This document shows positions 21,841 through 55,495 of a DNA stretch of 58,156 bases, in pieces. The stretch covers positions 1 to 58,156 of the forward strand of contig CALRHC010000004.1 in the NCBI GenBank assembly GCA_943359335.1, read 5' to 3'. Source of the DNA: Candidatus Yanofskybacteria bacterium. Its GTDB lineage: Bacteria; Patescibacteriota; Minisyncoccia; JACQLN01. The notes below the pieces were generated by a model that searched no databases, was not told the DNA's origin, and saw only the letters and a program-made list of their open reading frames with translations. The position numbers were made by a program, and so were the translations under genes. Within the stretch, counting starts at the first letter, position 1. Every line of letters starts with the position of its first letter.

Positions 21841-22071
21841 GACAAACCTCCTAAGGATTAAGGGAAATTCAGTTATTTTGGAACTGTCTGTATAGTAGCA
21901 TACATACATGCCTATTGTCAATACCAAGGCTCTGCACCGCAAACACGCTCAATTTTAGAGGTAATCCCTCGTCGCAAAACTCACTCGGGATATTTTTGCT
22001 TTCTATTTATAAATTTAAAAAAGCAAAAATAAATCCCCGCTCTGGTATTGGCCAAAACGGGGTTTGTGAAA

Positions 22072-22548
22072 TTAGGGCTCTACCTTGTTTCTTTTACTCC
22101 AAACATATTCGATAAAGGACATGGGCTTCACAGGTTCTTTTGTGTTGTCAGTATCCAAAGAATCCGAAACTGTAACAGTGATCGAAGTATCCGCACGAGA
22201 AACTTCTGTATTTTCTTTTTTTGCAGAAACAACACCTACAGAAACACTAGCTTTAGGTTTTTCTTTTTTATTGGAAAAAATTATTTTACGAAGTGATTCG
22301 TTCTCCTTTGTAAGAGAAATATTCTCATCAATCGTCAAACGCCCTGCGTCTTGCCATACTTTTAACGCCTTATTTGTGCGTTCAAGTTCATTGCTTAAAA
22401 AATCAACTTTATCCTGCAAAGAATCCCGAGACGCCGCAGCTTCTAATGCCAGCTTTTCAGCTTCGTCAAAATCTTTCTTTAACCCACTATCGCTACATGA
22501 AAAAAATAAAAGCGAAAGAAAAAGTAATTGAGACACTCTTAATAGCAT
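22072..22548 (-). CDS. Hypothetical lipoprotein-like coiled-coil protein
   Basis: Signal peptide ending LLFFSC; SD AAGGAG at 22558-22563; downstream hairpin. Confidence 0.7.
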   Translation of the reverse strand: MLLRVSQLLFLSLLFFSCSDSGLKKDFDEAEKLALEAAASRDSLQDKVDFLSNELERTNKALKVWQDAGRLTIDENISLTKENESLRKIIFSNKKEKPKASVSVGVVSAKKENTEVSRADTSITVTVSDSLDTDNTKEPVKPMSFIEYVWSKRNKVEP

Positions 22549-22653
22549 GGAGTTTTTCTCCTTGTTTGAGTTAGAATGAACTGTCTATCTTTTAACATAA
22601 AAATAACTCTGCGTCAAATATAAAACAGGCACGCGTTTGCGTGCCTGTTGCGG

Positions 22654-23043
22654 TTATTGTTTCCTTATCAACTTACGGAGTCTTTCGACTCTTTCAGACT
22701 CTGGAGATTTAATAGGAGCTGTTTCCTTTATAGGACTCGGACTTACAGATTCGATCCTTGCTGTTTCGTTTTTGCTATCCCCAGCCGTAAAACGGCCAAA
22801 GTAAAACGATACTGTGCCAATAGCAACAACAGTTACCAGCAAGATGACACAACCAAGAAAAAGAGTTCTCCTTTTTATTATCCTACCCTCAATAATAAGT
22901 TGGGTAGGATCAGTTTCTTCAACCTCTCTAAGGAGTCGATCCGTTTCCTGTCGTGCTGGATCTAATCCGAGCAAGTCCATCGACCGCCCAGTCTGAGACC
23001 CGCTTTTTGAGTTTCTTTCCATTTGGAGATGAGGAGACTTCAT
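22654..23043 (-). CDS. Hypothetical single-TM protein
   Basis: TM LFLGCVILLVTVVAIGTVSFYF; ATG directly follows the upstream stop (TGAATG). Confidence 0.7.
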   Translation of the reverse strand: MKSPHLQMERNSKSGSQTGRSMDLLGLDPARQETDRLLREVEETDPTQLIIEGRIIKRRTLFLGCVILLVTVVAIGTVSFYFGRFTAGDSKNETARIESVSPSPIKETAPIKSPESERVERLRKLIRKQ

Positions 23044-23589
23044 TCATCTCCCCACCTCCGCCTCGGGTAAAGGGCGGCCGGATTTAGTCTCCGCACCCCC
23101 TTCTCCTTCCCCAGGCAAATCATCATCGCCAGGCTGAAGCTCAACCTCTTCCCCTTGCGCTTGCTGGACTGGACGCTCTTCTTGGTGCACCTGCAACTGC
23201 TTTGCGCCATCAACGCCCATGAGCTTCTCGTATTTTCCGGTGATACGCGCCTGAATACGCGCAGCCATGGAAACTTTGTTGAGCTTGGTCTGAGCAACCA
23301 AAATCTTGTTGATGGCAACCCTCTGGCTGACGATCTCCTCGCCAAAAGCAGCGAGAATCTCGATCAGCTCTTCTCTGTTGAGATTTATTGCTTCGAGGGC
23401 GCTCGCAAGTTCTTCCTGCGTAATACCCTCCATCGTCCCAAGCCTAGCCAACAGCTGACCAACAGCTTCGACTTGCTCGGGAACTTTGGAATGTGCGTGT
23501 TCCATCGGCGCCTTAGGAGGGGCCGGATGAGGTGGTGTCCCAGCCCCTGTCAATTTCGACGAGGTGGCACCGTTTCTTTCTGGGGGCAT
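23044..23589 (-). CDS. Hypothetical helical protein (GC-rich)
   Basis: SD AGGAG at 23597-23601; promoter TTGACC-17-TAATAT at 23643-23671. Confidence 0.7.
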   Translation of the reverse strand: MPPERNGATSSKLTGAGTPPHPAPPKAPMEHAHSKVPEQVEAVGQLLARLGTMEGITQEELASALEAINLNREELIEILAAFGEEIVSQRVAINKILVAQTKLNKVSMAARIQARITGKYEKLMGVDGAKQLQVHQEERPVQQAQGEEVELQPGDDDLPGEGEGGAETKSGRPLPEAEVGR

Positions 23590-23671
23590 TTTTCTTCTCC
23601 TGTATAAGGGTTAACAATTTAGTTAAGGTACACGCGCCTGCAATATTAAAACATAAACAAAAAAAGGTCAA

Positions 23672-23739
23672 TCCCGTTAGAAACAGCCCGCCCTAAGGCC
23701 CTTTGGGCGCGCAAAGCGCGGGCGTGGTTTCTAACGGGA
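23672..23739. mobile_element. 68-bp MITE-like element, copy 1
   Basis: 13-bp TIR TCCCGTTAGAAAC/GTTTCTAACGGGA with TCAA on both sides; near-identical copy at 28163. Confidence 0.75.
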
Positions 23740-23751
23740 TCAAATCCAAAC

Positions 23752-23788: not shown

Positions 23789-23808
23789 TATCGCTCCGTT
23801 TCAAAAAT

Positions 23809-23924
23809 ATGGGCACCGACCTACTCTTCCAGACCATCAAGGATCTAGTACCATCGGCGCTAATGCGTTTCACTTCTCTGTTCGGAATGGGAAGAGGTGG
23901 GACCACATCGCTCAAGGCACCCAA
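23809..23924 (-). rRNA. rrf: 5S rRNA
   Basis: Reverse complement TGGGTGCC...CCCATTCCGAACAGAGAAGTGAAACGC...GCCGATGGTACT...GAGTAGGTCGGTGCCCA; flanking processing stem. Confidence 0.92.
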
Positions 23925-24311
23925 ATTTTTGAAACGGAACTTATAAACACTAAAAACTGAATAAGAATGTAAATGGCACCACAAATAGAACCTTAATCAC
24001 AAAAAAGTATTGCGATCTTAGTGCTTTCGTGAACATGCTCGATTAGTACTCCTCGACTCAACACCTTGCGGTGCTTACATCTAGAGCCTATCAACCTAGT
24101 AATCTTCTAGGGAGCTACGAGATCTAATCTTGAGGGAGGCTTCGTGCTTATATGCTTTCAGCACTTATCCCGTCCGAACGCCGCTACTCAGCACTGCCAC
24201 TGACGTGACAACTGATACACGGGAGGTTCGTTCCTTCCGGTCCTCTCGTACTAGGAAGAACTCCTCTCAAATCTCTACGCCTGCAGCAGATAAGGACCAA
24301 CCTGTCTCACG

Positions 24312-24997
24312 CATGTTAATCACCTATTACTAGGTGCATGGACTATACCACCCTCTCTATTTTAGAGAGGACCGACGTGTTAGCCCTCCAATTTTACTTG
24401 GAGAACTCCGTTCTTGGCTAAAACCAAGAACAAGTCTCTACGGGGTCAATGTACGTACTTTGCGTTTCTTAGAATAATTTAATTCTCTGTAAGAATCTAC
24501 TAATTTTAGTAATAGTCTAAAATCTTTTTCTGTTTCTATCTTTGATTTTAAATCAATTATTTTAAGCATTAATTCAACTTGTTTCTTTTTAAGAATTACA
24601 AATGGCTTAATGTAGATTAAAAATTCTTTTACATCATCAATGCGATTGATAACATACTCAAGAATTCCATCTTTTCTAATACGCAATTTACCACAACCAA
24701 TCAGAGAACAAACTTCTTCGAACTTAGTTTTTCCTTTAGCTGATTGAAAGAAAACTATATACAAAGCTATTTGATAACCAAAACGATAACTCGTATTTGG
24801 TTTAGCTCTAACATAGATACTTCCATCGCCATCTAAAAAACCAGCGATATAAGCTTTTTTGATTGGTGAAAGTAATTTAAACATACACGACTTCCCTCGG
24901 TATTATCCTAACACACGACAGGTTAAATGTGTATTAGGACTTCACCGATATGAGTCGATTTATGCATCTCAACATCGCTGTTGAGAGCCGCCTTCTG
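24312..24997 (-). ncRNA. Group I intron in 23S at site L2593
   Basis: Exons rejoin as GGGTTCAAACCGT|CGTGAGACAGG; the 5' exon ends in U, the intron ends in G, and an IGS-like GGCGG lies near the intron 5' end. Confidence 0.9.
24438..24884 (-). CDS. Intron-encoded single-motif LAGLIDADG homing endonuclease (I-CreI-like)
   Basis: AYIAGFLDGDGSIYV motif, 148 aa, inside the L2593 intron. Confidence 0.93.
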   Translation of the reverse strand: MFKLLSPIKKAYIAGFLDGDGSIYVRAKPNTSYRFGYQIALYIVFFQSAKGKTKFEEVCSLIGCGKLRIRKDGILEYVINRIDDVKEFLIYIKPFVILKKKQVELMLKIIDLKSKIETEKDFRLLLKLVDSYRELNYSKKRKVRTLTP

Positions 24998-27197
24998 ACG
25001 GTTTGAACCCAGCTCGCGTACCTTTTTAATGGGCGAACAGCCCAACCCTTGGAAGCTTCTCCACCTCCAGGATAAGGTGAGCCGACATCGAGGTGCCGAA
25101 CAGTGTCGTCGATATGGACTCTTGGACACTACCAGCCTGTTATCCCCGGGGTAACTTTTATCAGTTGATCTCTGCGTTGTTCTAATACAGCGCATCGGTT
25201 CACTAACTTCCACTTTCGTGCTTGCGCGGCTCTTTGGCCTTGCAATCAAGCTGGCTTGTGCGTTTACACTATCGCGCCGATTTCCATCCGGCGCTAGCCA
25301 ACCTTAATAAACTCCTCCGTTACTTTTTAGGAGGAAAGCGCCCCACTTAAACTGCCCACCAGGCACTGTCTTTCACTGGTTTAGAGTGAAGTTAGTTTTA
25401 GTAATCTCTAAGGATGGTATCTCACTGACGACTCCATGTAATCCAAAAACTACACTTCAAAGTCTCCCATCTATGCTGCGCAAAAAGATCGCTAAAACAA
25501 TACCAAGCTGCAGTAAAGCTCCCGGGGTCTTTCCGTCTTGCTGCAGGTACCCGGCATCTTTACCGGAATTGCCCGTTCATCGGGCTTTTCGTTGAGACAG
25601 TCCCCCAGTCATTACGCCTTTCGTGCGCGTGGGAACTTACCCCACAAGGTATTTCGCTACCTTAGGACAATTATAGTTATTGCCGTCGTTCATCGGTGCT
25701 TCGGGACTTTGCATATCAGGCGAACCCAATACACATCATCCGTTAACATCCCGACACTGGACAGGCGTCAGCCCCTATACATCCTCTTACGAGTTAGCAG
25801 GGACCTGTGTTTTAGATAAACAGTTGCCAGGGGGTCGTTTGCTGCGGCCTCGCTTGCGCGAGGCAGGCCTTTTTGCGAACTTACGGCCGTTGTTTTGCCG
25901 AGTTCCTTAACGAAAATTCACCCGTTCGCCTTCGTCTACTCGACGTGTCTACCTGTTTCGGTTTTAGTACGGACGTTTGCGACTTAATCTTAGAAGCTTT
26001 TCTAGAAAGGTGGCTTTGTGAAATTGACTCTCCCGAGGGAAAATCTTTTTTAGTATCTGCAGTTTGTCATTAAAGACAGGGCTCCGGTTTTACCAAGAAC
26101 CAACCTTTGATACTGAAGCGTTAAATTCAATAATACGCTCCACATACTCACCTCCGTCACTCCATCGAAATCGCAAACGGCAAATGAATATTAACATTTC
26201 ATCCATCCCCACGATCCGTACAACGAATCATGAGTTAGGACCGGCTAACCCTTGGTTGATTTACATTGCCAAGGAAACCTTAGACTTTCGGCGATCCGAT
26301 TTCTCATCGGATTTGCGATTACTCGGGCCAACATTCTCTCTTCCTAACGCTCCAGAGGCCCTCACGGGTCCTCCTTCACTGCGGTTAGGAATGCTCTTCT
26401 ACCACGCCTTCCAACCGAAGTTGGAAGACATTCGCACGTTCGGTATTAGGCTTAGCCCCGTTAAATCTTCGGCGCATTCTCCCGTAGTAGAGTGGTGAGT
26501 TGTTACACACTCTTTAAAGGATGGCTACCTCTAAGCCAACCTTCCACCTGTTTAAGGAAGAACACAACCTTTTCCACTTAGCCTAAATTTGGGGACCTTA
26601 CATGGCGATCAGGATTCTTCTCCTCTCGACTATGGAGCTTAGCCCCCACAGTCTAACTGCCTTGATAGTCACCGCGGTATTCGGAGTTTGTTTGGAACAG
26701 ATAACTTTCGTCACCCAATCCCATTCAGTGCTCTACCCCCGCGGCTAATTACAAAGCGCTAGTCCTAAAACTATTTCGAAGAGAACCAGCTATTACCAGG
26801 CTCGATAAGCTTTTCACTTCTACCCACAGTTCATCCCCCAGTGTTGCGCGACTGGTGAGTACGGACCTCCACTCTCCTTTCGGAGAGCTTCATCCTGACC
26901 ATGGGTAGCTCGCTCTGGCTTCGGGTCTTATGCACACCACCTTTGGAAAGTAGAATGTAGTCAGTAGAAAAAATTCTACCTTCCACATTCTGCTTTCCAT
27001 ACGCCCTATTAAGACTCGGTTTCCCTATGCTTGCGTCTAACTAAAGACTTAAGCAAGCGATGTACATAAAGTCGTTGGCTCATTCTCCAAGAGGCACACC
27101 ATCACCCACTCCAACATAAATGTTGCAGTAAGGGCTTTGATTCTTTGTAGGCAATTGATTTCAGGTACTATTTCACCGCCCTTCCGGGCTACTTTTA

Positions 27198-27228
<31 letters not shown>

Positions 27229-28133
27229 ATCTCAAAAGGTATTTAGCTTTGGGAGTTTAGTCCTCCCGGTTTCACCCGAAGTTGTCGTTCCTCGGGCTAC
27301 TCAGGAATGGATAAGAACTAAGAGTTAATTTTCGCTTACAGGACTATCACCTTCTATAGTTGCTCTTTCCAGAGACATTCAGCTAACTAAAACTTGTGTC
27401 CTTGCTTACGCATAATCCATCCTACAACCCCGACCGGTCAATATGGAAATACTGCCCAATCGGTTTGAGCTGCTCCCTGTTCGCTCGCCGCTACTAAGGG
27501 AATAAACTAAACAGTTAGAGCTTTAGCCTACTAACTCCCTAGACTACGTGTGCCTAGGAAGTTAGTTTGCTAAAGATAAGTTGTAAAGTCTGACATATCT
27601 TTTCCTCTGCTTACTGAAATGTTTTACTTCAGCAGGTTCCCTTCTTGAAGTTACCAACCTCCAAGACAATTTCGGTTTACGAAATTAGATTTCTCCATTC
27701 GGAAATCCCCGGATCAAAGCCTGCTACACGGCTCCCCGAGGCTTATCGCAGCTACGCCACGTCCTTCATCGGCCTTTTGAGTCAAGGCATCCACCAATTG
27801 CCCTTAAGTTCACGAAAGCACTAAGACCACAAAATGATCCGTGCTTTCCCTCTTCCTACAATAATCGCATTTTCAAGTGATTTTAAATTCTATTCCGAGC
27901 TTCTAGAAATTTACTGTCTAGTTTCTTAGGAATTTCCTAATAAACTAAAAGCTAATAACTAAAAGCTATTTGTATGATGCCGTTTACATCTTATTCAGTT
28001 TTTAATGTTCAAGTTTATGAAAAAGAAAAAATCCCGTGAAGCGGGATCGTTTACAAACCGACTAAAACAGGACACGATCTCATTCGCTTCTATGTTTTAA
28101 ATGGTATTTTTTTAACGTCATAAACGTAAAGCC

Positions 28134-28162
28134 ATTATATTCTTTATAATACCTAGCGTCAA
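28134..28162 (-). promoter_or_regulatory. Sigma70 promoter for 23S-5S; boxA at 27999-28010
   Basis: TTGACG-17-TATAAT; downstream GAACATTAAAAA. Confidence 0.8.
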
Positions 28163-28230
28163 CCCCGTTAGAAACAGCCCGCCACTAGGCCCCTTGGGCG
28201 CGCAAAGCGCGGGCGTGGTTTCTAACGGGG
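28163..28230. mobile_element. 68-bp MITE-like element, copy 2
   Basis: TIR CCCCGTTAGAAAC/GTTTCTAACGGGG with TCAA on both sides. Confidence 0.75.
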
Positions 28231-28303
28231 TCAAGCTAAATTAGGTGATAATACAGTTCAAAAATAGGATTGACGAATCAAGGTTTTTAGAGTATTTTTG
28301 TAT

Positions 28304-28375
28304 AGCGGGGTGGAGCAATGGTAGCTTGCCAGGCTCATAACCTGGAGGTTCCCGGTTCGAGTCCGGGTCCCGCAA
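28304..28375 (+). tRNA. tRNA-Met(CAT), probably initiator
   Basis: AGCGGGG...CCAGG-CT-CAT-AA-CCTGG...TCCCGCAA; 1:72 mismatch and A11-U24. Confidence 0.88.
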
Positions 28376-28616
28376 CTTATAAAAAAATGACATCCTTTTT
28401 TGGGTGTCATTTTTTTATTAAATTACGGACTCGAACCAGAAAGGGGTCGGGAAAACAAGTGTTTTCCCGTGGCGGAAACCTGCCTGCCGGCAGGCAGGTG
28501 TTAAAACCGAGGGGTTTTAAAGAGCGATCCGCCGACTGGCGGAAAGCGACGTGAGATTCCGGGTCCCGCAACTTATAAAATAAAACATCGAAGAATATTC
28601 TTCGATGTTTTATTTT

Positions 28617-28691
28617 TGGTGGGCGTTATAGGGATCGAACCTATGGCCTTTTCGATGTCAACGAAACGCTCTACCACTGAGCTAAACGCCC
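28617..28691 (-). tRNA. tRNA-Val(GAC)
   Basis: TTTCG-TT-GAC-AT-CGAAA anticodon arm; CCA encoded. Confidence 0.93.
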
Positions 28692-28855
28692 TAATACAGT
28701 CCGCCCTGTAGGAATTCGGTCACAACTCTCGCTCTGCTCGGTCGCGACCCCGCCTCGTCGTGCGCTTCGCGCACATACTCCGGCTTTCGAATCCTAACAA
28801 AAGAAAATAAATTTTATTTTTCAGGTCAGTTATTTTAAATATCGTAACTGTATAG

Positions 28856-28928
28856 TCCGCCCTGTAGGATTCGAACCTACGACCGTTTGCTTAAGAGGCA
28901 ACTGCTCTACCAACTGAGCTAAGGGCGG
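28856..28928 (-). tRNA. tRNA-Lys(CTT)
   Basis: TTGC-CT-CTT-AA-GCAA anticodon arm. Confidence 0.92.
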
Positions 28929-28967
28929 TTTTTTAAAAAAACTTTTTACTGCGGACTTGTCCGCCTC

Positions 28968-29045
28968 TGGCGGACCCGACCGGATTCGAACCGGCGATCT
29001 CCTCCGTGACAGGGAGGCGCTTTAAACCAGCTAAGCTACGAGTCC
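28968..29045 (-). tRNA. tRNA-Asp(GTC)
   Basis: CCTCC-CT-GTC-AC-GGAGG anticodon arm. Confidence 0.93.
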
Positions 29046-29072
29046 ATTTTATTTTTTAATCTTTCACTACTG

Positions 29073-29144
29073 TGCCTCTGGATGGAATCGAACCATCTTC
29101 TGAGCGTTATGAGTGCTCCGTTCTAACCATTGAACTACAGAGGC
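29073..29144 (-). tRNA. tRNA with CAT anticodon (elongator Met or Ile2)
   Basis: GAGCA-CT-CAT-AA-CGCTC; paired 1:72; identity cannot be resolved by eye. Confidence 0.8.
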
Positions 29145-29153
29145 CTTAAACTG

Positions 29154-29224
29154 AGCGGGATACCAGAATCGAACTGGCGCCTCCACCTTGGCAAGGTGAT
29201 GTACTACCACTATACGAATCCCGC
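29154..29224 (-). tRNA. tRNA-Gly(GCC)
   Basis: TCACC-TT-GCC-AA-GGTGG; U discriminator. Confidence 0.92.
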
Positions 29225-29266
29225 CTTCGCTAAAGCTTCGGCGGGCAAGCCCGCTTAAACTTTATG

Positions 29267-29338
29267 TGCCGCGAGTCAGAATCGAACTGACGACGCCATC
29301 CTCTTCAGGGATGCGCTCTACCACTGAGCTATCGCGGC
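29267..29338 (-). tRNA. tRNA-Phe(GAA)
   Basis: CATCC-CT-GAA-GA-GGATG. Confidence 0.93.
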
Positions 29339-29351
29339 AAAACAAACACAG

Positions 29352-29423
29352 TGGGTGTGGGAGGGATCGAACCTCCGACCTTTTCATTATCAGTGAAATG
29401 CTCTACCACTGAGCTACACACCC
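29352..29423 (-). tRNA. tRNA-Ile(GAT)
   Basis: TTTCA-CT-GAT-AA-TGAAA. Confidence 0.93.
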
Positions 29424-29644
29424 GAGATTGTATAACAAGAATAATAGTAAACAAAAACACCCTTATTATCAAGGATGTTTTTATTTTTCAGCACCATCTC
29501 TATACATTTTTTTGCAGCTTATTTTGGAGTTCCAGTTATAACCTTTCTGAAACCAGGTAGTCGTTCTTTTAAGTACTACGACCAACACTTTACGTTCCGA
29601 TATAAATATCGGAACTATCAACCTTTCTAAAGAAAATTCTCTAG

Positions 29645-31130
<1,486 letters not shown>

Positions 31131-31394
31131 AACTAAGATCGATTAACCCAATCAACTTAAAGATTAAATCTTTAAGTTATCGAATGAGTTTAAAAACCAA
31201 TCAAAAGAGTTTGTCCAAAATAAACTGCAAAAAAATAAATAGATTTGTGCTGACTCTATTCAATTATTAAGGTTCTTGGTGTATTTAAAAAACAAAATAC
31301 ACCTTCGGAAATTCCTTGGTCTTGAGTCAAGAAACTTTCGAAGATGTATCCGCTAAGTGTTTTTAATTTGTGCAGACCTGTATGTGTGTTCCCC

Positions 31395-31423
31395 ATTCTA
31401 TACGATAAGAAAAGCAGTGTCAA
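31395..31423 (-). promoter_or_regulatory. Sigma70 promoter for 16S; boxA at 31264-31275
   Basis: TTGACA-17-TAGAAT; downstream GAACCTTAATAA. Confidence 0.8.
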
Positions 31424-31501
31424 ATAAGCATTATTGACATATTTCATATGTAATTGTAATGTTTAGAATCAAATGTACCTTAACCTGCAAGGAGGCGCGG
31501 A

Positions 31502-31900
31502 ATGGCTATTAAATTTGAAATGGATTTTACGTTTCTGAAAGATGAAGCTGGAAAAATAAATGGCCTCTCTTTGGTAGCTCAGGGACATACGGAATCCGAG
31601 GTTTTCTGCAGAACTTTTCCGAAGGCTTTAGTTGAAGGTAGTGCTGAATTGCACTTTAAAGAAAGTGAAATAATATTCAAGCATCTTACCTGCCGATTCC
31701 CTGGTGAATATAGATGTGAAGTTGACCCAACAGAGATGCTTTCATTCAGAAAATTTCAAGACGAAATAGAAGCATCGGAAGGAAAAAGAAGAATGAAATT
31801 TATTCGTACAGCTACTCTTACTGCTGGATTCGCAATAAAAGAAGCAACACCCGAAGAAATTGCAAATGTTCTGTCTCCACCTACAGTCGAAAAAAAGTAA
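31502..31900 (+). CDS. Hypothetical protein
   Basis: 132-aa ORF with AAGGAGG SD, TTGACA promoter and a terminator at 31905-31931. Confidence 0.75.
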   Translation: MAIKFEMDFTFLKDEAGKINGLSLVAQGHTESEVFCRTFPKALVEGSAELHFKESEIIFKHLTCRFPGEYRCEVDPTEMLSFRKFQDEIEASEGKRRMKFIRTATLTAGFAIKEATPEEIANVLSPPTVEKK

Positions 31901-31930
31901 ACTCAAAAGGCCGCCCACAGGCGGCCTTTT

Positions 31931-37859: not shown

Positions 37860-37885
37860 TTTTACTCTCTCTTTTTTTAAAAGGA

Positions 37886-39446: not shown

Positions 39447-39591
39447 ATATTTTTCTATTAACTTTAACCCTAATACTCTATCAAAAATCAAAAATATTGG
39501 CAATATAGTAAACCGACTAGACTATAATACAAATATGTTTTATATTACAAAGTAAATCAGATCTTTAAAAATAAAAAACTGGGGGGTGTCT

Positions 39592-40254
39592 ATGGCACGT
39601 CACACCGAAAGATTAGCAAGGCAAATGGTGAACCATCTTATTAAGCCTCATATAGATAGAGAAACTCCAAATAACCACGAAAGAACGCTGGGCAATAATT
39701 GGCTTTACTTAACATCTCTTTTAGCAGAATGTTTAGAAAAGAAACCAATAGAAATCACTACCGATACATATGAATGCATAGTTAAAGAATTATCTACATA
39801 TTCAACAACAGAAATTATCTTGTTAGCTTTTGTGGCTAATCGGCTAACAAAACACAAACGATACAACCACGATTTCACCACTAAAGAAAGATTTTATGCT
39901 TTTAAATGTGCGCTATTAAACTTAGCAATTATGCACTTCTACTGGGCAAATAGAATTTATTATGTAGAAGATGAAAAGCCGTGGTTACACAAAGACGAAA
40001 GACCCTTTTTGTTGATACGCCAAGACCCACAAAACAGAGGTAACTTACTTTTAAAGTTTTCGATAGAAGGTTCTTACAAAATAGACGAAGAAACTTCGAA
40101 AATTAGGCGCCACTATATGCCCCATAGTTTTATTAGCTTGCATTTGCCTAAAAACAATCTGCACCCAGAAATAGCAGAAATAATAAAGACATATGAATCT
40201 GGCAAAATAACAACAGAAAGACCTGCCCTACCCATCGAACTAGTTGTTTCCTAA
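39592..40254 (+). CDS. Hypothetical protein
   Basis: About 220-aa ORF; GGGGG SD; terminator at 40261-40291. Confidence 0.7.
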   Translation: MARHTERLARQMVNHLIKPHIDRETPNNHERTLGNNWLYLTSLLAECLEKKPIEITTDTYECIVKELSTYSTTEIILLAFVANRLTKHKRYNHDFTTKERFYAFKCALLNLAIMHFYWANRIYYVEDEKPWLHKDERPFLLIRQDPQNRGNLLLKFSIEGSYKIDEETSKIRRHYMPHSFISLHLPKNNLHPEIAEIIKTYESGKITTERPALPIELVVS

Positions 40255-40296: not shown

Positions 40297-40566
40297 TTAA
40301 GTATCAAGAAAATCACCTCTCCATGCACTGTCAACCAACCAGAATAAATTAGAAACTTCATCTATAAAAAAAGTTATGGTTTTCCATCCACCTTTAAAAA
40401 CACTTAATACGACAACAGCACAAAATAAAATAACAGTTACAATAGACTTGATCAGACCAGCAAAGAAAATGTATATCCATTTTCTTTTTTCTTTGTAAGC
40501 CCTTCTCATCCAAAAAATAGATAGTGCCAACCAAACAACTAGAGTCGGAATCATAAAATGATCCAT
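40297..40566 (-). CDS. Small two-TM hypothetical protein
   Basis: Start reassigned to MDHF (SD AAGGAGG at 40572-40578). Confidence 0.65.
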   Translation of the reverse strand: MDHFMIPTLVVWLALSIFWMRRAYKEKRKWIYIFFAGLIKSIVTVILFCAVVVLSVFKGGWKTITFFIDEVSNLFWLVDSAWRGDFLDT

Positions 40567-40701
40567 TCTGACCTCCTTGCGGTTGTTGAGAGTTAACTTA
40601 AATAATGAACTTTCAATAAGATACAACAATAATTAAATTATATCAAGTTATATTGCTCAACTTGTTCTGCTATACTTTGATTGGTTAATTTGAACTCGCT
40701 T

Positions 40702-43911: not shown

Positions 43912-43913
43912 GG

Positions 43914-46775: not shown

Positions 46776-46816
46776 ATAAAATACCGCCCCGATCTTGTAT
46801 CGGGGCGGATTGTTTT

Positions 46817-47278
46817 TCAGATAGGAACAACTATGGCCGCGCGAATCGCGCATGCCGGAATATCTGCGTTCCATTTGTCGCGAGCATCTTCTGCTTCTTC
46901 TTTATCGGTGTAAAGTTTAGGATAAACCAACTCTTGTGGATTATCCTCAAAAACCAAAATGAAAGTCTCTTCTGTCCAAGTTTCTTGTAAAATAGTCTCA
47001 GCAAGTCTGGAAATTTCGTCAGACAACACTTTATTCTTGCATTCAATAGCAATGCTTTTTAAGCTTTCAGAAATTTTCTGCCTTTCCTTATCTAGAATCT
47101 GCATTCCACCCATAATTTGCAAAATAAGCGTTGTGCATACCGATGAAACAGCTTGACCCAAACTTGCGGGATCTCCACTCCTAGCATCCGCTATCATTCT
47201 TTGAGCATGATATTTCAAATGCGTAAGAAGGATTTTATAAGCTGGTCTTTTCTCTGGTCTTTCCTGCTGATCAGTCAT
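46817..47278 (-). CDS. Hypothetical protein
   Basis: SD AAGGAG; terminator at 46784-46816. Confidence 0.7.
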   Translation of the reverse strand: MTDQQERPEKRPAYKILLTHLKYHAQRMIADARSGDPASLGQAVSSVCTTLILQIMGGMQILDKERQKISESLKSIAIECKNKVLSDEISRLAETILQETWTEETFILVFEDNPQELVYPKLYTDKEEAEDARDKWNADIPACAIRAAIVVPI

Positions 47279-47345
47279 GCCTATTCTCTCCTTTGAAAGA
47301 ACTGTGTTTGGTTGAACTTCTTAAGTAGTAATGTATAATCAAGCT

Positions 47346-48312: not shown

Positions 48313-48774
48313 CTAGCGATTCAGAATCGCCATAATCTCATCCAGTTTAGCTGTTTGTTCAGCAATACTGGCAACGTGCTTCTCGTGTTTTTCCTTCGCT
48401 TCGTGGAGTATAGTCTGAAGAGAAGAAAAGATGTCGAGAATTGGGAGACAGCCTAGCATGACAATAGAGTCATTCTCACTGGTGGGACAAATCTCTTTAT
48501 CCCTTGCTGTGAAAATATTACCCTTATCGTCTAGGTAAACACTCAATTCCCCATCAATAAGACCGATCCCCACAGCCCTTTTTGAAACAGTGCCACCTCT
48601 TTCGTTTTGGAACAACAACGGAGAGACCACGTACCTCACCAGTGGTCTCAGTGTGTTCATCAACGCTTTTAGAACTTCCCAGTACTTTTTTGCCAACTCC
48701 AGGTCCTCTGGGTGGCCAGTAACATTGAGACTGTGAAGCGTCTGGCCTTTGGGGGCGCTGTTGGACGTATCCAT
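48313..48774 (-). CDS. Hypothetical protein
   Basis: SD GAGGAG; promoter TTGACA...TATACT; own terminator. Confidence 0.7.
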   Translation of the reverse strand: MDTSNSAPKGQTLHSLNVTGHPEDLELAKKYWEVLKALMNTLRPLVRYVVSPLLFQNERGGTVSKRAVGIGLIDGELSVYLDDKGNIFTARDKEICPTSENDSIVMLGCLPILDIFSSLQTILHEAKEKHEKHVASIAEQTAKLDEIMAILNR

Positions 48775-48897
48775 TGTCAGCTCCTCTTATGGTTTTGCCC
48801 TATAAAGGGCAGGTTTTTATGAGAAAGAACATAGCCGATTTGACTATGTTCTAAGTATAAACTATTTAACGCTTAATGTCAATATAAACGCTATTTA

Positions 48898-50487: not shown

Positions 50488-52104
50488 TTACTTCTTTTGC
50501 AGCAAATCTAGTTTCTTTTGCGTGGCCAATTCTGCAGCCATGCGAGTAAGTTCCGGATCTTCGCCTGTGTTCACAAACCTCATTGCACCACCAATTATGG
50601 GATGAACCCCGCACAACTGCCGATGCATCTCTTTAACAATCTTCCGATAACCCGGATGACCTTGAGGAGTTGTCCGCAATTCATGTATATGAAAAGATTC
50701 ACGAGCATTCACCATAAAACGATAACGCATAAGGTTTCCCAAAAGCGTTGCATACTGTGCTTCCTCTTCGTAACTATGCTGGTTCATTGTTCTAAAAAGA
50801 CTGCTGGATATTTGGAAACATCTCTGGAACGTATCGGTAAAACCAGCTTCCTGAACAAGTTCTGTTACTTCATAACCATACGAAGGAGTAAGTCTCTGCC
50901 ACTCCCACATATCTACCATTCTATGACGCTGCAAATCCCTAAATGTTCCGTAATCGCCGATAATTTCCCATTCGTAGTGGGCTCTCTCAAGCGCTCGCCC
51001 TGGTTTGTGCCTACGATTCAACCGTCCAGCTAAAAATTCTTGCAGCACTTCTTGTTTCCGTTCTTCCGACCAATTGTCGACGATCCTGTATATTTCGGAC
51101 ATAGACATATCGCACTCGGAAAAAAGAAATTCAGAAACAAGCTCCAGCTCGTCCTTTGGTTCATAACCTACCATCGTAACCTTGGGACCAACTATTGATT
51201 CATCGGGCTTAAAATTTATTTTATCTGCCTCGTTCCATAACCGTTTTGCGATAACAGAAATCTTTTCCCTATGCGCCATACGATAAGCAACCATAGCACC
51301 ACCACGTTCGGGTAAATCCGTACGTTCAAAAAATACTCCGGCTACTTTTCTAGCTTCTTTTAGAATTTGAAGGCCAACCCTACTACACTCTTCGAGTGGT
51401 TCGGATTCCAAATGAAGAATCAAGCTTTCTATAGCCTGTGCCGAAGCCACAATTCCAACTGTAGAAGTAGTAGCTACAGGCAACACAGCCCTAACCGCAT
51501 CGCAAGCTTGGGCCCGAGTAGCCCCTAACCATGCAATGCGTGCAACTTTTTCTTTTGGTTCTTCAACTTTCTTACGCACAAATTCTGTAACGCCATGAAC
51601 CATCGCAGAATACAAAGAAAAAATATCGTCCATAACATCTACATACGTACGCCTGATACTTGGACGGAGATTTTCAGGAACGTAGTAACGGTATCTATCC
51701 CCAACCTTTTGATCGAAGAAAATATAACGAGTAGATTGTTCCAAATATGAAGCCAACCTACCCCATTCCAATTTCTTGGTTAATAAATTGGAAGCATTTT
51801 CTACCACCAAAGAAATCGGCATCAGTTGTTGAACCGAATCATCTCCAAAAGCAGTTATAACCCTGCTTAAAAGCGCGTCGGCTTTTTCTTCTGATGCCGC
51901 GAATTCATCTAGGTAAATCTGCCTCAAATCGTCGGCCCTGCGAGAAAGACGTGCCATCGCCGCCGCCACTAAAAGTGGCGAGGCTTCGCTGGTAAAAGCA
52001 TAAACGGAACCAGATGGATCTGTGACAATTCTAGAAAGATACTCCTGACCAACAGGTGTGATTACTAAGCCTGCCTCGGTTTTTTCTACATATGGATTAG
52101 CCAT
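50488..52104 (-). CDS. thyX: Flavin-dependent thymidylate synthase, tandem-domain form
   Basis: FGDDSV, LEQSTRY, FRDLQRHR, ELRTTPQGHPGYR; start MANPY after an SD. Confidence 0.88.
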   Translation of the reverse strand: MANPYVEKTEAGLVITPVGQEYLSRIVTDPSGSVYAFTSEASPLLVAAAMARLSRRADDLRQIYLDEFAASEEKADALLSRVITAFGDDSVQQLMPISLVVENASNLLTKKLEWGRLASYLEQSTRYIFFDQKVGDRYRYYVPENLRPSIRRTYVDVMDDIFSLYSAMVHGVTEFVRKKVEEPKEKVARIAWLGATRAQACDAVRAVLPVATTSTVGIVASAQAIESLILHLESEPLEECSRVGLQILKEARKVAGVFFERTDLPERGGAMVAYRMAHREKISVIAKRLWNEADKINFKPDESIVGPKVTMVGYEPKDELELVSEFLFSECDMSMSEIYRIVDNWSEERKQEVLQEFLAGRLNRRHKPGRALERAHYEWEIIGDYGTFRDLQRHRMVDMWEWQRLTPSYGYEVTELVQEAGFTDTFQRCFQISSSLFRTMNQHSYEEEAQYATLLGNLMRYRFMVNARESFHIHELRTTPQGHPGYRKIVKEMHRQLCGVHPIIGGAMRFVNTGEDPELTRMAAELATQKKLDLLQKK

Positions 52105-52118
52105 CTCTGTTTTCTCCT

Positions 52119-52802
52119 TTATATGAGAGGTTGGATTTTTGCCCAAATTAAATCAGCAACTACTTCTTGTGAAAAAATATCTTTGCCATCGTCACAGACG
52201 ATGACTTCGAAATCATTTGGATAAACACGGGCTAATTCCATATAAGAAAGCCAGCTTAATTCTAAATACTCGCTGTCAACTTCGTGTATATCTTTTGCTT
52301 TTCCGCCAAGATAATCTCTTCTGGCTTTTTGTTCTATCAACCTAACTGCGATTTCGGGATTTACAGAAAGAATGAAATTTTTTGTTGGGCGTGGAATTCC
52401 TAAAAAATTGTGCTCAAAATCTAAATTCCATTCCCAAAACCTCAATCTTTCGTAGCTATCTCTAATCTTTGCTCCTTGATGTCCTAGATTAGCAGCAGTA
52501 TATCTATTAGATAAAATCACAGAACCAGATTCTAACCAATTACGAATTTCAACAGACGCACAAAACCTATCTACAGCATATAAAACAGCACCCTTCTTTG
52601 GACCAATTTCTTCTTTGGTACCCAAAAGTCCATTAAGATAAAGCTCTACTGGACCCGCAGATTTATGTCCGTATCTTGGAAAATCTACAACTTTAAAATC
52701 TATACCCTCCGCTAACAATCTCTGAGATAAAATCTGAACCTGCGTACCTTTACCCGAACCATCTATGCCATCAATCACAATCAACTTACCTTTCGAAGAC
52801 AT
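52119..52802 (-). CDS. tmk: Thymidylate kinase
   Basis: IDGIDGSGKGTQ, FPRY, LYAVDR, NRY. Confidence 0.92.
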   Translation of the reverse strand: MSSKGKLIVIDGIDGSGKGTQVQILSQRLLAEGIDFKVVDFPRYGHKSAGPVELYLNGLLGTKEEIGPKKGAVLYAVDRFCASVEIRNWLESGSVILSNRYTAANLGHQGAKIRDSYERLRFWEWNLDFEHNFLGIPRPTKNFILSVNPEIAVRLIEQKARRDYLGGKAKDIHEVDSEYLELSWLSYMELARVYPNDFEVIVCDDGKDIFSQEVVADLIWAKIQPLI

Positions 52803-52904
52803 GAGGAACTCCTTTCTTTAGGGTTTTTAAGGAACAAAATTAACTGGAGGTTAACATGGCTTTATAAAATTAAAAAGAGGCGCACTGGTGGCGCCTCAAT
52901 GAAC

Positions 52905-54008
52905 TTATATAAACTGCTTTGCTAAACGAGGAACAGAAAACTCCATCGCATAACTAGAATCAGAAGAAGAATCGTAAGACATCTCGGGAATTTCCGCCAT
53001 ACATTCAAACCTTATTTTCGCTATTGGTTGTTCATCGCGCAAAACAAGGTCTTCCAGCGGACGGACTTCCAAAACTAAACTTCTGCCACAACCGTTACCA
53101 TTTAATCCCCAACCCCAACCTGGGTCAATGTATCCTGCAAAATGAGAACGAAATTCTCCACAACGTTCATCCATCGCTACCATTTCGCAAGCATAACTAG
53201 GTGGAACGCGAACCCGCTCTTTTGTTTTGAAAATATAGAAACAACCTTCTTTAAGTTGAATTTTTCCCTTATGTACTTTGAGTGGTCTAAAAAAATCTAG
53301 TGGCTGATAACCGCGAGTCTTATCCCAATCTAAAACATTGTTTACACCCAAACATTCCCAACCCACAATGTCTCCATCTAAATCTATAGTTAGGATAACG
53401 GAACCATCGCCATCTTTGATTCTTATTTCTGAATATTGAAAAGGCCTCTTGCCATCTCCATACCACATCAACTGGTTTTTCGAGAAAGATTCTACAAGTT
53501 GTTCTTCGTTAAAACGTGTATCCATATTAAAGAAACGCATTTGAGACAAAGTTGTACCCTTACTTATTTTAATTGGAAAATATTTTGGTGTAACTATCAA
53601 CCAAAGATCTCCGGAAAAGCCGGCTGGATAAATTGCATCGTACCTAGAAATTCTATCTGCCAAAACTCGCGCATGGACACCGTTACGTCCAGTGGAAGAT
53701 TTTGGATTTGCAAAAGCATACACATCTTCTGGCAAACGAAGAGATTCTTCAAGTTTTATAAGATACGCTACATTTTTTTCTAAAGGCAGATCCAAGTAGT
53801 GCCTTGAAACCTCTATTTGGCTTAAAACTTCTTCGACTGTTTCGTGGGGCCTTGGTAAAAAAATACCATCTACACGAAAAATTTCTTCGGAAATAGACAG
53901 ATCCATAGAAGCTGGACGCACATTATGTTGCGACGCACCCAATATTCTACGAGAACTTATCATTTCTTTTATTACCTGAACAGGCAAGGCTCCTTTTCCA
54001 CTTACCAT
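52905..54008 (-). CDS. dcd: dCTP deaminase, long DCD family
   Basis: PASMDL, ANPKSSTGR, HFAGYIDPGWG, VLEVR; ATG at 54008 fits the SD spacing. Confidence 0.85.
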   Translation of the reverse strand: MVSGKGALPVQVIKEMISSRRILGASQHNVRPASMDLSISEEIFRVDGIFLPRPHETVEEVLSQIEVSRHYLDLPLEKNVAYLIKLEESLRLPEDVYAFANPKSSTGRNGVHARVLADRISRYDAIYPAGFSGDLWLIVTPKYFPIKISKGTTLSQMRFFNMDTRFNEEQLVESFSKNQLMWYGDGKRPFQYSEIRIKDGDGSVILTIDLDGDIVGWECLGVNNVLDWDKTRGYQPLDFFRPLKVHKGKIQLKEGCFYIFKTKERVRVPPSYACEMVAMDERCGEFRSHFAGYIDPGWGWGLNGNGCGRSLVLEVRPLEDLVLRDEQPIAKIRFECMAEIPEMSYDSSSDSSYAMEFSVPRLAKQFI

Positions 54009-54100
54009 AAACAATCTCCTTTTTGATTTTTAGAAAGAACTAAAAACACGAACCAGATTGGTTCGTGTTTTAGGTTAGCAATTTATTTAATCTAATTCAA

Positions 54101-54526
54101 TTACTTGGAAACCTCAATACCCATACTTCTTGCAGTTCCTTCTATAATCTTCATGGCTTGCTCTACTGTATCAGCACTTAAGTCTGGCATTTTAATTTCG
54201 GCGATTTGGCGAACTTGTTCGCGTGTAACTTTGCCTATTTTTGCCTTTAAAGGATCCTTGGCACCTTTTTCTACTTTAGCTGCTTTTTTTAATAAATCGG
54301 AAGCTGGAGGTGTTTTATATTTCAAATCGAAAGTTCTATCTTCGTAGATAGTTATTTCAACAGGAATAACATTGTCGCCTTTATCAGCAGTAGCTGCGTT
54401 AAATTTGGAACAAAAATCCTGCAAGTTTAAACCATGAGGCCCTAATGCGGTACCTACTGGTGGAGCTGGATTTGCTTTACCAGCCTGCAACTGAAGTTTT
54501 ACAACTGTTTTTATTTTTTTTGCCAT
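54101..54526 (-). CDS. rplK: 50S ribosomal protein L11
   Basis: [22 protein letters not shown]. Confidence 0.98.
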
Positions 54527-54532
54527 ATTTTT

Positions 54533-55078
54533 CTATATCTTTTTTATCTGTAAAAAATCTAATTCAACTGGAGTCTCTCGTCCGAACATCGAAACCAATA
54601 CTTTGATTTTACCTTTCTCTTCGTCTACAGCAGAGACCTTACCATCAAAATCTTTAAATGGACCGTCCGTTATTTTTACCGCATCTCCTACCGCAACGTC
54701 AATCTTATACTTAGGTTCGTCTATACCCATTCTGCGTTGAATTTCGTGAATTTCTTCATCGGAAACCGGAATAGGTGTAGTGCCCGAACCCACAAAGCCT
54801 GTAACGCGCGGAGTGTTTCTGGCAACATACCAAGAATCGTCTGTTACGTTCATCTCTACCAAAACATAACCCGGATAAATTTTTTCCTCTATCACACGGC
54901 GCTTGCCGTTTCTTATTTTAATTTTTTTCTCGGTAGGTACGATTACATTAAAAATTCTATCTTGCATACCTAAAGATTCAATTCTTTGTTTTAAATTGCG
55001 AGCCACCGTATCTTCGTACCCAGAGTGAGTATGAAGCACATACCAGTTTCGCCCATATTTTGATGTTTGTTTTGCCAT
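54533..55078 (-). CDS. nusG: Transcription factor NusG
   Basis: WYVLHTHSGYE, PGYVLVEM, KOW motif, FGRETPVEL. Confidence 0.98.
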   Translation of the reverse strand: MAKQTSKYGRNWYVLHTHSGYEDTVARNLKQRIESLGMQDRIFNVIVPTEKKIKIRNGKRRVIEEKIYPGYVLVEMNVTDDSWYVARNTPRVTGFVGSGTTPIPVSDEEIHEIQRRMGIDEPKYKIDVAVGDAVKITDGPFKDFDGKVSAVDEEKGKIKVLVSMFGRETPVELDFLQIKKI

Positions 55079-55192
55079 GTTTTTCTATGAATGAAATGAA
55101 TAGTTAAAAACATGTGTCCGCCGTAGCCTTGCTTGATTCTTTATCGTTACTTGATAAATACGGGCGAAGGCGGGCCATGTTCTTTAATTTAT

Positions 55193-55375
55193 TTAAAATA
55201 TAAATGTATTCAATAAAAACGAAAACAAATAATCTAATCCACCCAAAAAAACAGCGACTCCCAAAGATACTCCTATAACAAGCAAAGTATATCTGGTTGT
55301 TTGTTCACGAGTAGGCCAGTTAACCTTGCCTAACTCAACCCGTACGTCTTTCAAATATGATGTTAATTTACCCAT
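55193..55375 (-). CDS. secE: Preprotein translocase SecE
   Basis: ELGKVNWPTR plus TM; upstream of nusG. Confidence 0.95.
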   Translation of the reverse strand: MGKLTSYLKDVRVELGKVNWPTREQTTRYTLLVIGVSLGVAVFLGGLDYLFSFLLNTFIF

Positions 55376-55495
55376 TTTCTTTATTATTTAAGGTTTAAAA
55401 AAAGGCCCGCAGGCCATACTTGACTTTAACTATACTCCTAGGGCATACTTTCTGTCAATACCATGCAGTCCAATCCTTAAAAAAGGAGGGTGGTC

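Follow-up and report, generated by a model that had tools for sequence, protein, structure and literature searches.

The leader motif and its link to strong Shine-Dalgarno sequences

The stretch of DNA considered here, further referred to as the window, is an entire 58-kb contig (C4, 58,156 nucleotides) of the Candidatus Yanofskybacteria genome G000, which amounts to 591,612 bp in 17 contigs with about 37% GC and a marker-gene completeness rated at 100%. The window carries a minus-strand rRNA operon split into separate 16S and 23S parts, genes of rpoB and rpoC size, those for the ribosomal proteins L7/L12, L10 and L11, as well as nusG, secE and nusB, and further rnc, trmD, dnaE, gatB, miaA, a class II aminoacyl-tRNA synthetase (aaRS), a dcd-tmk-thyX module and a number of orphan open reading frames (ORFs), or ORFans. 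The subject of this work is a short motif with the consensus (A/T)GTTCTTT, which precedes the Shine-Dalgarno (SD) site in leaders of mostly ORFan units and resembles BoxA. BoxA and the Nus factors belong to the textbook parts of rRNA synthesis. A first-pass annotation of the contig had proposed that accessory genes share an rrn-like boxA plus a strong SD, which housekeeping genes lack. All ten motif sites that it listed are indeed there, each in sense orientation upstream of an ORF, two on the plus strand (31475 and 39560) and eight on the minus strand, and so are the strings GAACCTTAATAA and GAACATTAAAAA quoted from the two rRNA leaders; the two sites it had taken for weaker versions are weak, with position weight matrix (PWM) scores of 5.5 (near 21860-21866) and 3.0 (upstream of 55496), the word AATCCTTAAAAA at 55473 being devoid of the 5′ G.

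For the genome-wide assessment, strong-SD starts were defined as AGGAG or GGAGG located 3-11 nt before ATG, GTG or TTG, the ORF being 50 aa or longer. Of 137 candidates, 51 with 40 or more codons open upstream of them were removed as probably internal, and 86 remained. GTTCTT leads all 6-mers in enrichment over the 40 nt preceding these SDs, being found in 18 of the 86 leaders against 1.45 expected and in none of them in antisense, followed by CCTTAA, AGTTCT and CAGTTC. Expectation maximization allowing zero or one occurrence per sequence, started from 250 different seeds, converges on one motif, aGTTCTTTaaa, that is (A/T)GTTCTTT with an A-rich, G-free tail. Its information is concentrated at G1 (1.46 bits), C4 (1.44), T6 (1.24) and T7 (1.03), then at T2 (0.74), T3 (0.56) and T5 (0.32, with T, C or A accepted), little being left beyond position 7; A occupies position 2 in 4% and position 3 in 20% of the sites, the latter giving GTAC. 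Searched over the 45 nt before the SD, the degenerate regular expression (regex) of the first-pass annotation, G(T/A)(T/A/C)C(T/C/A)TT, turns up in 37 of the 86 leaders in sense and in 6 in antisense, while 500 dinucleotide-preserving shuffles yielded a mean of 5.23 with a standard deviation of 2.13 and a maximum of 15. The exact word GTTCTTT is present in 18 leaders against 0 in antisense and a shuffle mean of 0.74. A PWM trained on the same 86 leaders was used at a threshold of 8 to call motif leaders, 44 of which were analysed; counts based on it are partly circular, a problem that does not affect the k-mer, regex and shuffle tests.

The motif is therefore real by 6-mer, expectation-maximization and shuffle tests, strand-specific and above chance, to a greater degree than had been claimed from the window. 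It may still be asked if base composition, with a T-rich, degenerate word in intergenic DNA that is rich in AT, or the gene calling itself could feign such a signal. The regex is loose, with 1.2 matches per kb per strand over the whole genome, and strong PWM matches are only modestly enriched between genes (58 intergenic against 178 inside ORFs). Yet neither the excess over shuffled leaders nor the antisense deficit would be expected from such an artefact; at PWM scores of at least 9, SD-less genes have 0 of 365 leaders with the motif in sense and 13 of 365 in antisense, and the same word is found anew in a relative of another genus described below. Rejected in the k-mer, gene-class, PWM, shuffle and other-genus tests, this explanation retains practically negligible probability.

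The association with SD is exclusive. Gene calls and SD classes came from a home-made caller (470 well-supported, tier-1 genes) in which the choice of start rewards an SD. Among tier-1 genes with an SD of at least 5 bases (n=49), the regex is met within 60 nt upstream in 16 cases in sense and 2 in antisense; the corresponding numbers are 0 and 5 for a 4-base SD (n=56) and 5 and 21 for an SD of 3 bases or fewer or none (n=365). At PWM scores of at least 9 bits, which is a partly circular count, 12 of the 49 strong-SD leaders and 0 of the 365 SD-less ones are positive, with 1 and 13 in antisense. The motif is thus not equally frequent upstream of SD-less core genes or in shuffled DNA, and its position is biased. 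Core genes do have the A-rich, G-poor leaders ascribed to them, where G accounts for 9-10% of the bases from -10 to -4 and every form of SD is lacking; in the window this holds for L7/L12, L10, L11, rpoC, nusB, trmD, dnaE, gatB and miaA. The statement that housekeeping genes lack the motif stands as a tendency only, since tmk, a gene of the sigma-70 family and the dcd-tmk-thyX module are tagged with it or SD-led: tmk, dcd, thyX and the sigma-70 family gene all have an SD, and three of these four are tagged. Other purine-rich SDs (GGGGAG, AAGGA, GGGGGG) are also preceded by the motif in about 13 further leaders counted by eye, which, added to the 44, brings the tagged units to some 50-60, about a tenth of all genes.

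Conservation was examined with the pattern GTTCTTT N2-25 AGGAG searched on both strands against the same pattern read backwards. G000 has 14 occurrences versus 3 in the control. The motif is enriched in all ten relatives of the same family, with 8-40 versus 1-6 occurrences in each and a sum of 197 versus 33, a control with only the motif reversed giving 20. Outside the family the sums are 129 and 117, and only the genomes G011, G022, G023 and G028 lean upward. In G008, which represents another genus of the family (262 kb examined, 47% GC), GTTCTT is again the top 6-mer in front of the 53 strong SDs, 12 occurrences standing against 0.62 expected; among 111 long ORFs, only 8 come with an SD-like word. 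On its 3′ side the motif is flanked there by T-rich sequence, so that conservation is limited to its core.

Leader anatomy and the units that carry the motif

The first G of the motif lies 21-56 nt before the start codon, and in the 37 leaders defined by regex the motif lies 2-38 nt before the SD. A sigma-70-like promoter with at least 9 of 12 matches is found within 110 nt upstream in 26 of the 44 motif leaders and at 51 of 400 random positions, which gives measure to the earlier statement that a TTGAC promoter is often present. In 24 of these 26 leaders the end of the -10 element and the G of the motif are separated by 7-27 nt, so that the motif would start within the first 20 or so nucleotides of the message; the variability of this gap excludes a fixed promoter element. 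With 11 of 12 matches, the sites of 16S, of 23S and of the ORFan 48313-48774 rank among the window's best promoter-like ones. Terminator-like hairpins follow at least ten units of the window, in agreement with the proposal that the units have terminators of their own. The motif is predicted to be unpaired in 34 of the 44 leaders. Both rRNA leaders have a hairpin adjoining boxA; a significant hairpin (z of -2 or below) upstream of the motif or including it occurs in only 4 of the 44 mRNA leaders, and an architecture of nut type, with hairpin and boxA in a boxB-boxA-boxC order, was rejected on this count. Coordinates are collected in Table 1.

Table 1. Positions of the motif cores with their units, and of the rRNA and Nus features, in the window
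Feature	Position	Strand	Details
GTTCATT core	22575-22581	-	leader of ORFan 22072-22548 (158 aa); PWM 10.0; motif G 33 nt before ATG; SD AGGAGA 22557-22562; terminator-like hairpin 22062-22035
GTACCTT core	23625-23631	-	leader of ORFan 23044-23589 (181 aa, GC 0.56); SD 23596-23601; promoter-like TTGACC-17-TAATAT 23671-23643
GTACCTT core	31475-31481	+	leader of ORFan 31502-31900 (132 aa); SD GGAGGC 31491-31496; terminator 31905-31930
GTCCTTT core	37880-37886	-	small ORF 37635-37859 (74 aa); PWM 10.4; weak purine-rich SD GAGAGT
GATCTTT core	39560-39566	+	ORF 39592-40254 (220 aa); PWM 9.1; G-rich SD GGGGGT 39582-39587
GTTCATT core	40604-40610	-	leader of ORFan 40297-40566 (89 aa); SD GGAGGT 40571-40576; promoter-like site 40646-40618
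GTTCTTT core	47296-47302	-	leader of ORFan 46817-47278 (153 aa); 3 nt before AGGAG; promoter TTGACA-17-TACATT 47358-47330; two-way terminator 46784-46808
GTTCTTT core	48824-48830	-	leader of ORFan 48313-48774 (153 aa); forms 3′ arm of conserved 5′ hairpin; promoter TTGACA-17-TATACT 48882-48854; SD 48780-48785; terminator 48284-48263
GTTCCTT core	52829-52835	-	leader of tmk (52119-52802); SD AGGAGT 52808-52813
thyX	50488-52104		follows tmk; own AAGGAG
GTTCTTT core	54034-54040	-	leader of two-domain dcd (52905-54008); SD AGGAGA 54015-54020
16S promoter	31423-31395	-	TTGACA-17-TAGAAT
16S-leader rRNA boxA GAACCTTAATAA	31264-31275	-	2 nt after hairpin; PWM 4.9
16S rRNA	29645-31130	-	followed by eight tRNAs of the same unit
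16S rRNA 3′ end GGATCACTTCTTATCT	29643-29658	-	anti-SD CUUCU instead of CCUCC
23S-5S promoter	28162-28134	-	TTGACG-17-TATAAT
23S-leader boxA-like GAACATTAAAAA	27999-28010	-	separate 23S leader; PWM 4.8
23S rRNA	24909-27817	-	followed by 5S; own promoter
nusB	38631-39149	-	SD-less leader; candidate reader of the motif with S10
nusG	54533-55078	-	sole NusG-family gene found in the genome

Accessory genes and ORFans strongly predominate among those tagged, as had been suggested. Pfam was scanned with 43 of the 44 motif genes (C7:23481-23669, 62 aa, was left out): the curated cut-off is reached by 9 of the 43 and by 9 of 20 length-matched SD-less controls, the latter including IF3, L10, L27 and FtsW. 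The nine matches are tmk, dcd, sigma-70, UBact, ornithine cyclodeaminase, NUDIX, FMN reductase, FlgD-Ig and an amino-acid permease, and 11 motif genes reach an E-value of 0.001 or lower; the low Pfam rate is thus a tendency rather than a rule. Two of these genes deserve mention in their own right, a 59-aa gene for the ubiquitin-like UBact (C11:13159-13338) and a 291-aa sigma-70 family gene (C1:57204-58079), one of three sigma genes of G000, both with a motif and SD leader. All three genes that were tested have no homologue in the family relatives searched. For the 153-aa (46817-47278) and 132-aa (31502-31900) ORFans none was found in any of 12 relatives, and the first of them matched only itself among 5.8 billion clustered proteins; dcd has homologues in 3 of 30 relatives and in none of the ten from its own family.

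Two loci illustrate the uneven occurrence of tagged units, which at both are found in part of the congeners only. At the junction of aaRS and miaA, the one that was read base by base, the genes overlap without interruption in G003, G004, G006 and G002, and an insert (46776-47330 in the window) is found in G000 and G007, with homologous ends and unrelated ORFs of 153 and 59 aa. The two inserts have in common a terminator and the leader CAGTTCTTTCAAAGGAGA, and both provide MiaA with a new N-terminus (MNLSNTNLPK and MDLSNSKLPK, respectively). At the second locus, the ORFan 48313-48774 is 40% identical to its positional orthologue in G003 and 29% in G004, the flanking genes being 89-92% and 76-81% identical; nevertheless the promoter, the 5′ hairpin, ATGTTCTTT, the segment from SD to ATG and the first 8 codons are conserved in both, with one compensatory change in the hairpin from A-U to C-G. 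The same slot has no gene in G001, G002 and G008 and a different ORFan preceded by GTTCCTT...AAGGAG in G007. Expression signals at this locus are therefore constrained more tightly than the proteins, since the leader is kept while protein identity falls to the values given.

Such patchy occurrence brings up the possibility that the shared leader is a matter of heritage, the units having come from one mobile cassette or gene pool with a standard promoter and leader, in which the motif is a passenger. Presence and absence between congeners, the inserts with homologous ends and unrelated ORFs, the lack of dcd in the rest of the family and the spread of ORFan GC from 0.28 to 0.58 would agree with that. 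All-against-all BLAST of the 44 leaders, however, shows only 14-35 nt in common, mostly over the stretch from motif to SD, with one weak protein pair, so they are not copies of a repeat; the same comparison detected no extended shared flanks between cassettes, and no search aimed at integrases was made. Nor does the leader travel with the gene, because the dcd homologues in G029, G012 and G017, members of three other families, are without the motif, even where the order rplK-dcd is preserved, as in G029. The motif is kept base for base where the flanking leader and ORF diverge (the 48313 locus) and is met again in a genus with GC higher by 10 points (G008), and a phage search with the ORFan cluster at 21200-23700 gave no match. 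The common mobile source envisaged in the first-pass annotation thus finds no support in the leaders, which share short stretches, or in the proteins, which are unrelated, yet the units do come and go among congeners; as an account of the motif, heritage is improbable.

Several observations made along the way concern the window and its relatives. The ORFan cluster 21232-23589 adjoins the 5S gene, reaches a GC of 0.56 against 0.37 for the genome, and its ORFs score low or negative in a coding model trained on long ORFs. Within the split operon region (23808-31423), a tRNA-Met gene (28304-28376) lies on the opposite strand between the 16S-tRNA and 23S-5S units. A GC-rich and hairpin-rich minus-strand stretch, 28400-28580, occupies the space between the terminator of the tRNA cluster and the 23S promoter and contains an exact GCTCTTTAAAA (28515-28525, PWM 10.6) along with GGTTCGAGTCC, which is similar to a tRNA T-arm; a permissive Rfam search of 28370-28630 returned hairpin matches at chance level only and no family above chance. 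The first 231 nt of 16S (30900-31130) are 100% identical between G007 and G000, and MiaA encoded on the same G007 contig as its 16S (C14) is only 63% identical to that of G000, the rRNA leader of G007 being different as well (GCACTTTAACAA); the identity of 16S could be due to conservation, recombination or a binning chimera. In G021, a word from the 5′ part of 16S, AGAGTTTGATCCTAGCTC, occurs twice at a distance of 137 nt, which suggests, from the sequence, an insertion or intron near the 16S 5′ end.

The altered tail of 16S rRNA

The picture drawn by the first-pass annotation is changed by a feature that it had missed, the anti-SD of 16S rRNA, which reads CUUCU. All five family genomes with a recovered 16S 3′ end (G000, G003, G004, G006 and G008) share this tail, and G011 has a close variant of it; G012, G014 and G022 have canonical CCTCCTT tails, G013, G020 and G021 other degenerate ones, and no 16S end could be recovered for G010, G023 and G028. 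The 12-nt tail pattern is too short for a class-wide survey, as it also matches coding DNA (two matches outside 16S in G011). Genes for uL1 and bS21 were not found in G000. Where rplA normally follows rplK, there is a terminator and then the thymidylate module dcd-tmk-thyX (52905-54526 for the rplK-dcd part), with the motif of dcd starting 2 nt after the rplK terminator hairpin (54071-54043), and another terminator lies at 52897-52877; dcd stands directly after rplK in G029, too. In these traits G000 fits the subgroup of Parcubacteria without uL1 and without the anti-SD, as characterized in the available part of PMC9297842 (Tsurumaki et al. 2022), since it has neither CCTCCT at the 16S 3′ end nor uL1. 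According to the same portion of that work, SD helices are thought not to form in this subgroup. In G000, by contrast, the two C-to-U changes of the tail are predicted to keep wobble pairing with AGGAGG, and an SD-led class with a leader motif persists; such a class was not seen described in the part of PMC9297842 at hand. The 86 SD regions pair with their own tail at a mean of -6.9 kcal/mol, as compared with -10.7 for the canonical tail and -2.0 for SD-less genes. SDs adapted to the altered tail can be dismissed, AGAAG and AAGAA being not enriched near starts.

A comparable division of messages is documented for the SD-blind Bacteroidia with their rpsU autoregulation, where, as far as the accessible parts of PMC9976891 and PMC13000453 go, most genes are likewise SD-less on A-rich leaders and a strong-SD minority forms a separately regulated class. 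There the anti-SD is intact but hidden by bS21, bS18 and bS6, and the SD class amounts to one or few genes; in G000 the anti-SD itself is changed, bS21 was not found, and the SD class comprises about 86 genes with an additional motif upstream.

The resemblance of GUUCUUU to the 16S tail CUUCUU, with UUCUU in common, leads to another explanation, in which the motif is a mimic of the anti-SD acting in cis: it would pair with AAGGAG by means of G.U and mask the SD in the manner of a fourU element. At least three motif:SD pairs are predicted in 12 of the 44 leaders at 37 C and in 13 at 15 C. In partition-function folds of the 44 leaders, however, the expected number of such pairs is 1.84 against 1.60 for permuted motifs, and the control is exceeded in only 21, so that the mimic was abandoned as a mechanism of general validity. 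In the common variants, GTACCTT and GTTCATT, the register is lost; G1, conserved best of all, is left without partner; and positions 2, 3 and 5 show no preference for C, with which pairing to GGAGG would be stronger. The whole explanation appears decidedly improbable. Pairing of the motif with rRNA in trans was discarded also, 16S having no complement and 23S only three scattered words.

Candidate readers of the motif

The published BoxA consensus is GYTCTTTAANA, and mutations of C4 and T6 abolish its function (PMC5725501, in the part available). A crystal study of NusB-NusE-BoxA describes reading of 8 nt, nucleotide 9 having no base-specific contact, and in lambda BoxA the changes G2U, C5A and U6G, which correspond to G1, C4 and U5 in the numbering of the mRNA motif, lose binding (PMC3177189, likewise in the part available). 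The information of the mRNA motif covers just this 8-nt core, and its informative positions (G1, C4, T6 and T7, T or C at 5, a pyrimidine at 2) coincide with those of BoxA, which upholds the comparison made by the first-pass annotation. Read by eye, the boxA homologues in the rRNA leaders of 17 genomes of the class keep G1, C4, T6 and T7, and the positions variable among them, 2, 3 and 5 (GCAC, GAAC, GCTC, GTTC, GTAC), are those variable in the mRNA motif. An automatic scan found a site with at most one mismatch to GYTCTTTAANA in 7 of the 17 leaders, but such matching is not decisive in AT-rich DNA and picks a loop word in G000, where GAACCTTAATAA was assigned as boxA by homology to the block GCACTTTAACAATTGAATAGAG of G006 and G007. 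With BoxA of rrn and of lambda nut the motif has in common the core (N)GYUCUUU with its invariant G, C and UU, the availability of NusB, S10, NusA and NusG, all encoded in G000, and a location, predicted here from promoter-like sites, near the transcript 5′ end as RNA that is read single-stranded there and predicted to be so here; as with rrn BoxA, the homologous boxAs of the rRNA leaders in the class follow a hairpin. It differs from them in standing on about 50-60 protein-coding leaders beside an SD and not on rRNA, in the A-rich 3′ half, which is not conserved, in the lack of a boxB or boxC context and in deviating from the rRNA boxAs of its own genome at positions 2-3.

Regulation of an mRNA by BoxA has a precedent in suhB of E. 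coli and in a parE-like gene of Citrobacter koseri (Baniulyte et al. 2017, PMC5725501, from its accessible part, as are the other data from this source below). There, too, BoxA lies at the beginning of the transcript, in the 5′ untranslated region a few nucleotides upstream of the SD, 6 nt in the case of suhB, and one validated target is an accessory gene, for a toxin. A BoxA within 50 nt of the start and near the SD, as specified for targets of suhB type, is what the leaders of G000 have, with the G at 21-56 nt and the gap to the SD of 2-38 nt. The regulons of suhB type differ in being composed mostly of autoregulatory and translation genes and in acting via SuhB, with Rho termination at the end. 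As had been noted, nusB and nusG reside in the window, and nusA as well as rpsJ, the gene of S10 at C5:39445-39729, are present in the genome. NusB is canonical and NusG is single, PF02357 having one match in the genome, by which a specialised paralogue of RfaH or LoaP type with an ops-like leader was discounted.

Our preferred reading, a tentative one, is that the motif represents a Nus-type element: (A/U)GUUCUUU, with few G in the sequence after it, would work as single-stranded RNA in SD-dependent leaders, close to their 5′ end. The setting is a lineage in which the ribosome has a weakened anti-SD (CUUCU), core genes are started without SD, and some 50-60 monocistronic, mostly fast-evolving ORFan units retain a canonical AGGAGG that is still able to pair with the altered tail through G.U. 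With respect to the binder of the motif and to the direction of the effect, we infer the following. The leader motif as RNA, AGUUCUUUAAA, would be the sequence bound by NusB and S10, the NusB-S10 (NusE) dimer recognizing the BoxA core on mRNA leaders as it does on rRNA leaders. From its place 2-38 nt upstream of the SD, and with NusG as its link to RNA polymerase, the complex would set the ease of 30S loading on tagged messages, as it does at suhB of E. coli, and may also render the polymerase resistant to the many hairpin terminators around the units. Expression of the accessory set would thereby be linked to the free pool of NusB and S10, that is, to ribosome synthesis. A broader version, possible but doubtful, is that a family devoid of uL1 has given up strong SD reading, maintains two kinds of messages and employs NusB-S10 as a global regulator of accessory genes with neither Rho nor SuhB.

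A number of facts weigh against an assignment to the Nus system. The rRNA boxAs of the genome itself, GAACCTTAATAA and GAACATTAAAAA, have PWM scores of 4.9 and 4.8 against the threshold of 8 and share with the mRNA motif only G1, C4, T6, T7 and A8-9, so the term rrn-like, appropriate for the core positions of BoxA, is a loose one with regard to the organism's own rRNA leaders (GAAC and so on). Among relatives the rRNA boxA varies (GCAC, GAAC), the mRNA motif being GTTCTTT throughout, so that one does not follow the other. Rho and SuhB, whose presence had been proposed as a check, were not found when this genome, rated 100% complete, was searched with PF07497 and PF00459, although in an assembly of 17 contigs such absence is no proof. 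In E. coli the full complex is required for BoxA repression of suhB, with Rho as a part of the read-out (PMC5725501); with neither protein found, the two known outputs of BoxA control cannot apply as described. From 0 to 7 BoxA targets with a leaning to translation genes are known per gamma-proteobacterial genome (PMC5725501), whereas here about 50-60 units in 0.59 Mb, on ORFans, would be concerned, and the motif was seen neither before nusB and nusG nor before any of the ribosomal protein genes examined. In 4 of the 44 leaders the motif is located in or next to a stable hairpin, and at the 48313 locus the compensatory change supports a pairing that would hide it from a single-strand binder. 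Finally, a U-rich word of 7-8 nt could serve another reader, such as S1 or a cold-shock protein (Csp).

This last point leads to the alternative that some other single-strand RNA reader, or the 30S subunit itself, recognizes the motif as a translation enhancer or a stabiliser of the 5′ end, be it bS1, the single Csp, an RNase or an unlisted factor; we regard it as plausible and as a serious rival, though somewhat less probable than the Nus reading. The altered anti-SD pairs weakly, -6.9 versus -10.7 kcal/mol as given above, and SD-led messages would for this reason need an enhancer or stabiliser. The genome encodes bS1 (419 aa, with four S1 domains) and a single Csp. Enhancers of S1 type lie just upstream of the SD, which is where the U-rich motif, predicted to be unpaired, is located. 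S1, however, reads A/U-rich RNA loosely, and the near-invariant G1 and C4 would not be expected for it. The binding of Csp is of low specificity. CspB of Bacillus prefers the heptamer GTCTTTG/T (Morgan et al. 2007, PMC1904285, in the part consulted), similar to the motif in being a pyrimidine-rich single-strand site with a 5′ G; the motif GTTCTTT is longer by one base, and GTCTTT as such does not appear in the top 40 of the enriched 6-mers. A direct contact with the 30S through base pairing is not favoured, 16S being without a complement. The poor fit of the rRNA boxAs to the motif also speaks for a reader other than NusB-S10, as does the distribution of the enrichment, which goes with the altered tail, being seen in the family and, moderately, in G011, and not in G012 and G014 with their canonical tails; G022, equally canonical, has the pattern 6 times versus 1. 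This tie between tail and motif concerns one family plus one genome, is weak phylogenetically and is to be taken as a lead.

In the literature searched, which did not cover subscription journals, no description was found of a BoxA-tagged, SD-led class of genes in the Candidate Phyla Radiation, Parcubacteria or Patescibacteria. Regulation of mRNAs by BoxA is itself recent knowledge and concerns a handful of genes per genome. Should the tentative assignment to NusB-S10 hold true, the set described would be by far the largest candidate Nus regulon, with dozens of unrelated and fast-evolving genes, the more striking on the background of an altered anti-SD and SD-less core genes, and the output of accessory genes would be tied to ribosome synthesis. 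If another factor reads the motif, it would be a marker of a translation class of a new kind. In practical terms, the combination of motif and SD serves as a signal for real small ORFans and for their starts, several of which a coding model scored low or negative, and the family offers a natural system for the role of SD once the anti-SD has drifted. Either way, the motif gives a handle on the control of strain-specific genes in ultra-small uncultured bacteria, where such tagged genes likely act in host interaction.

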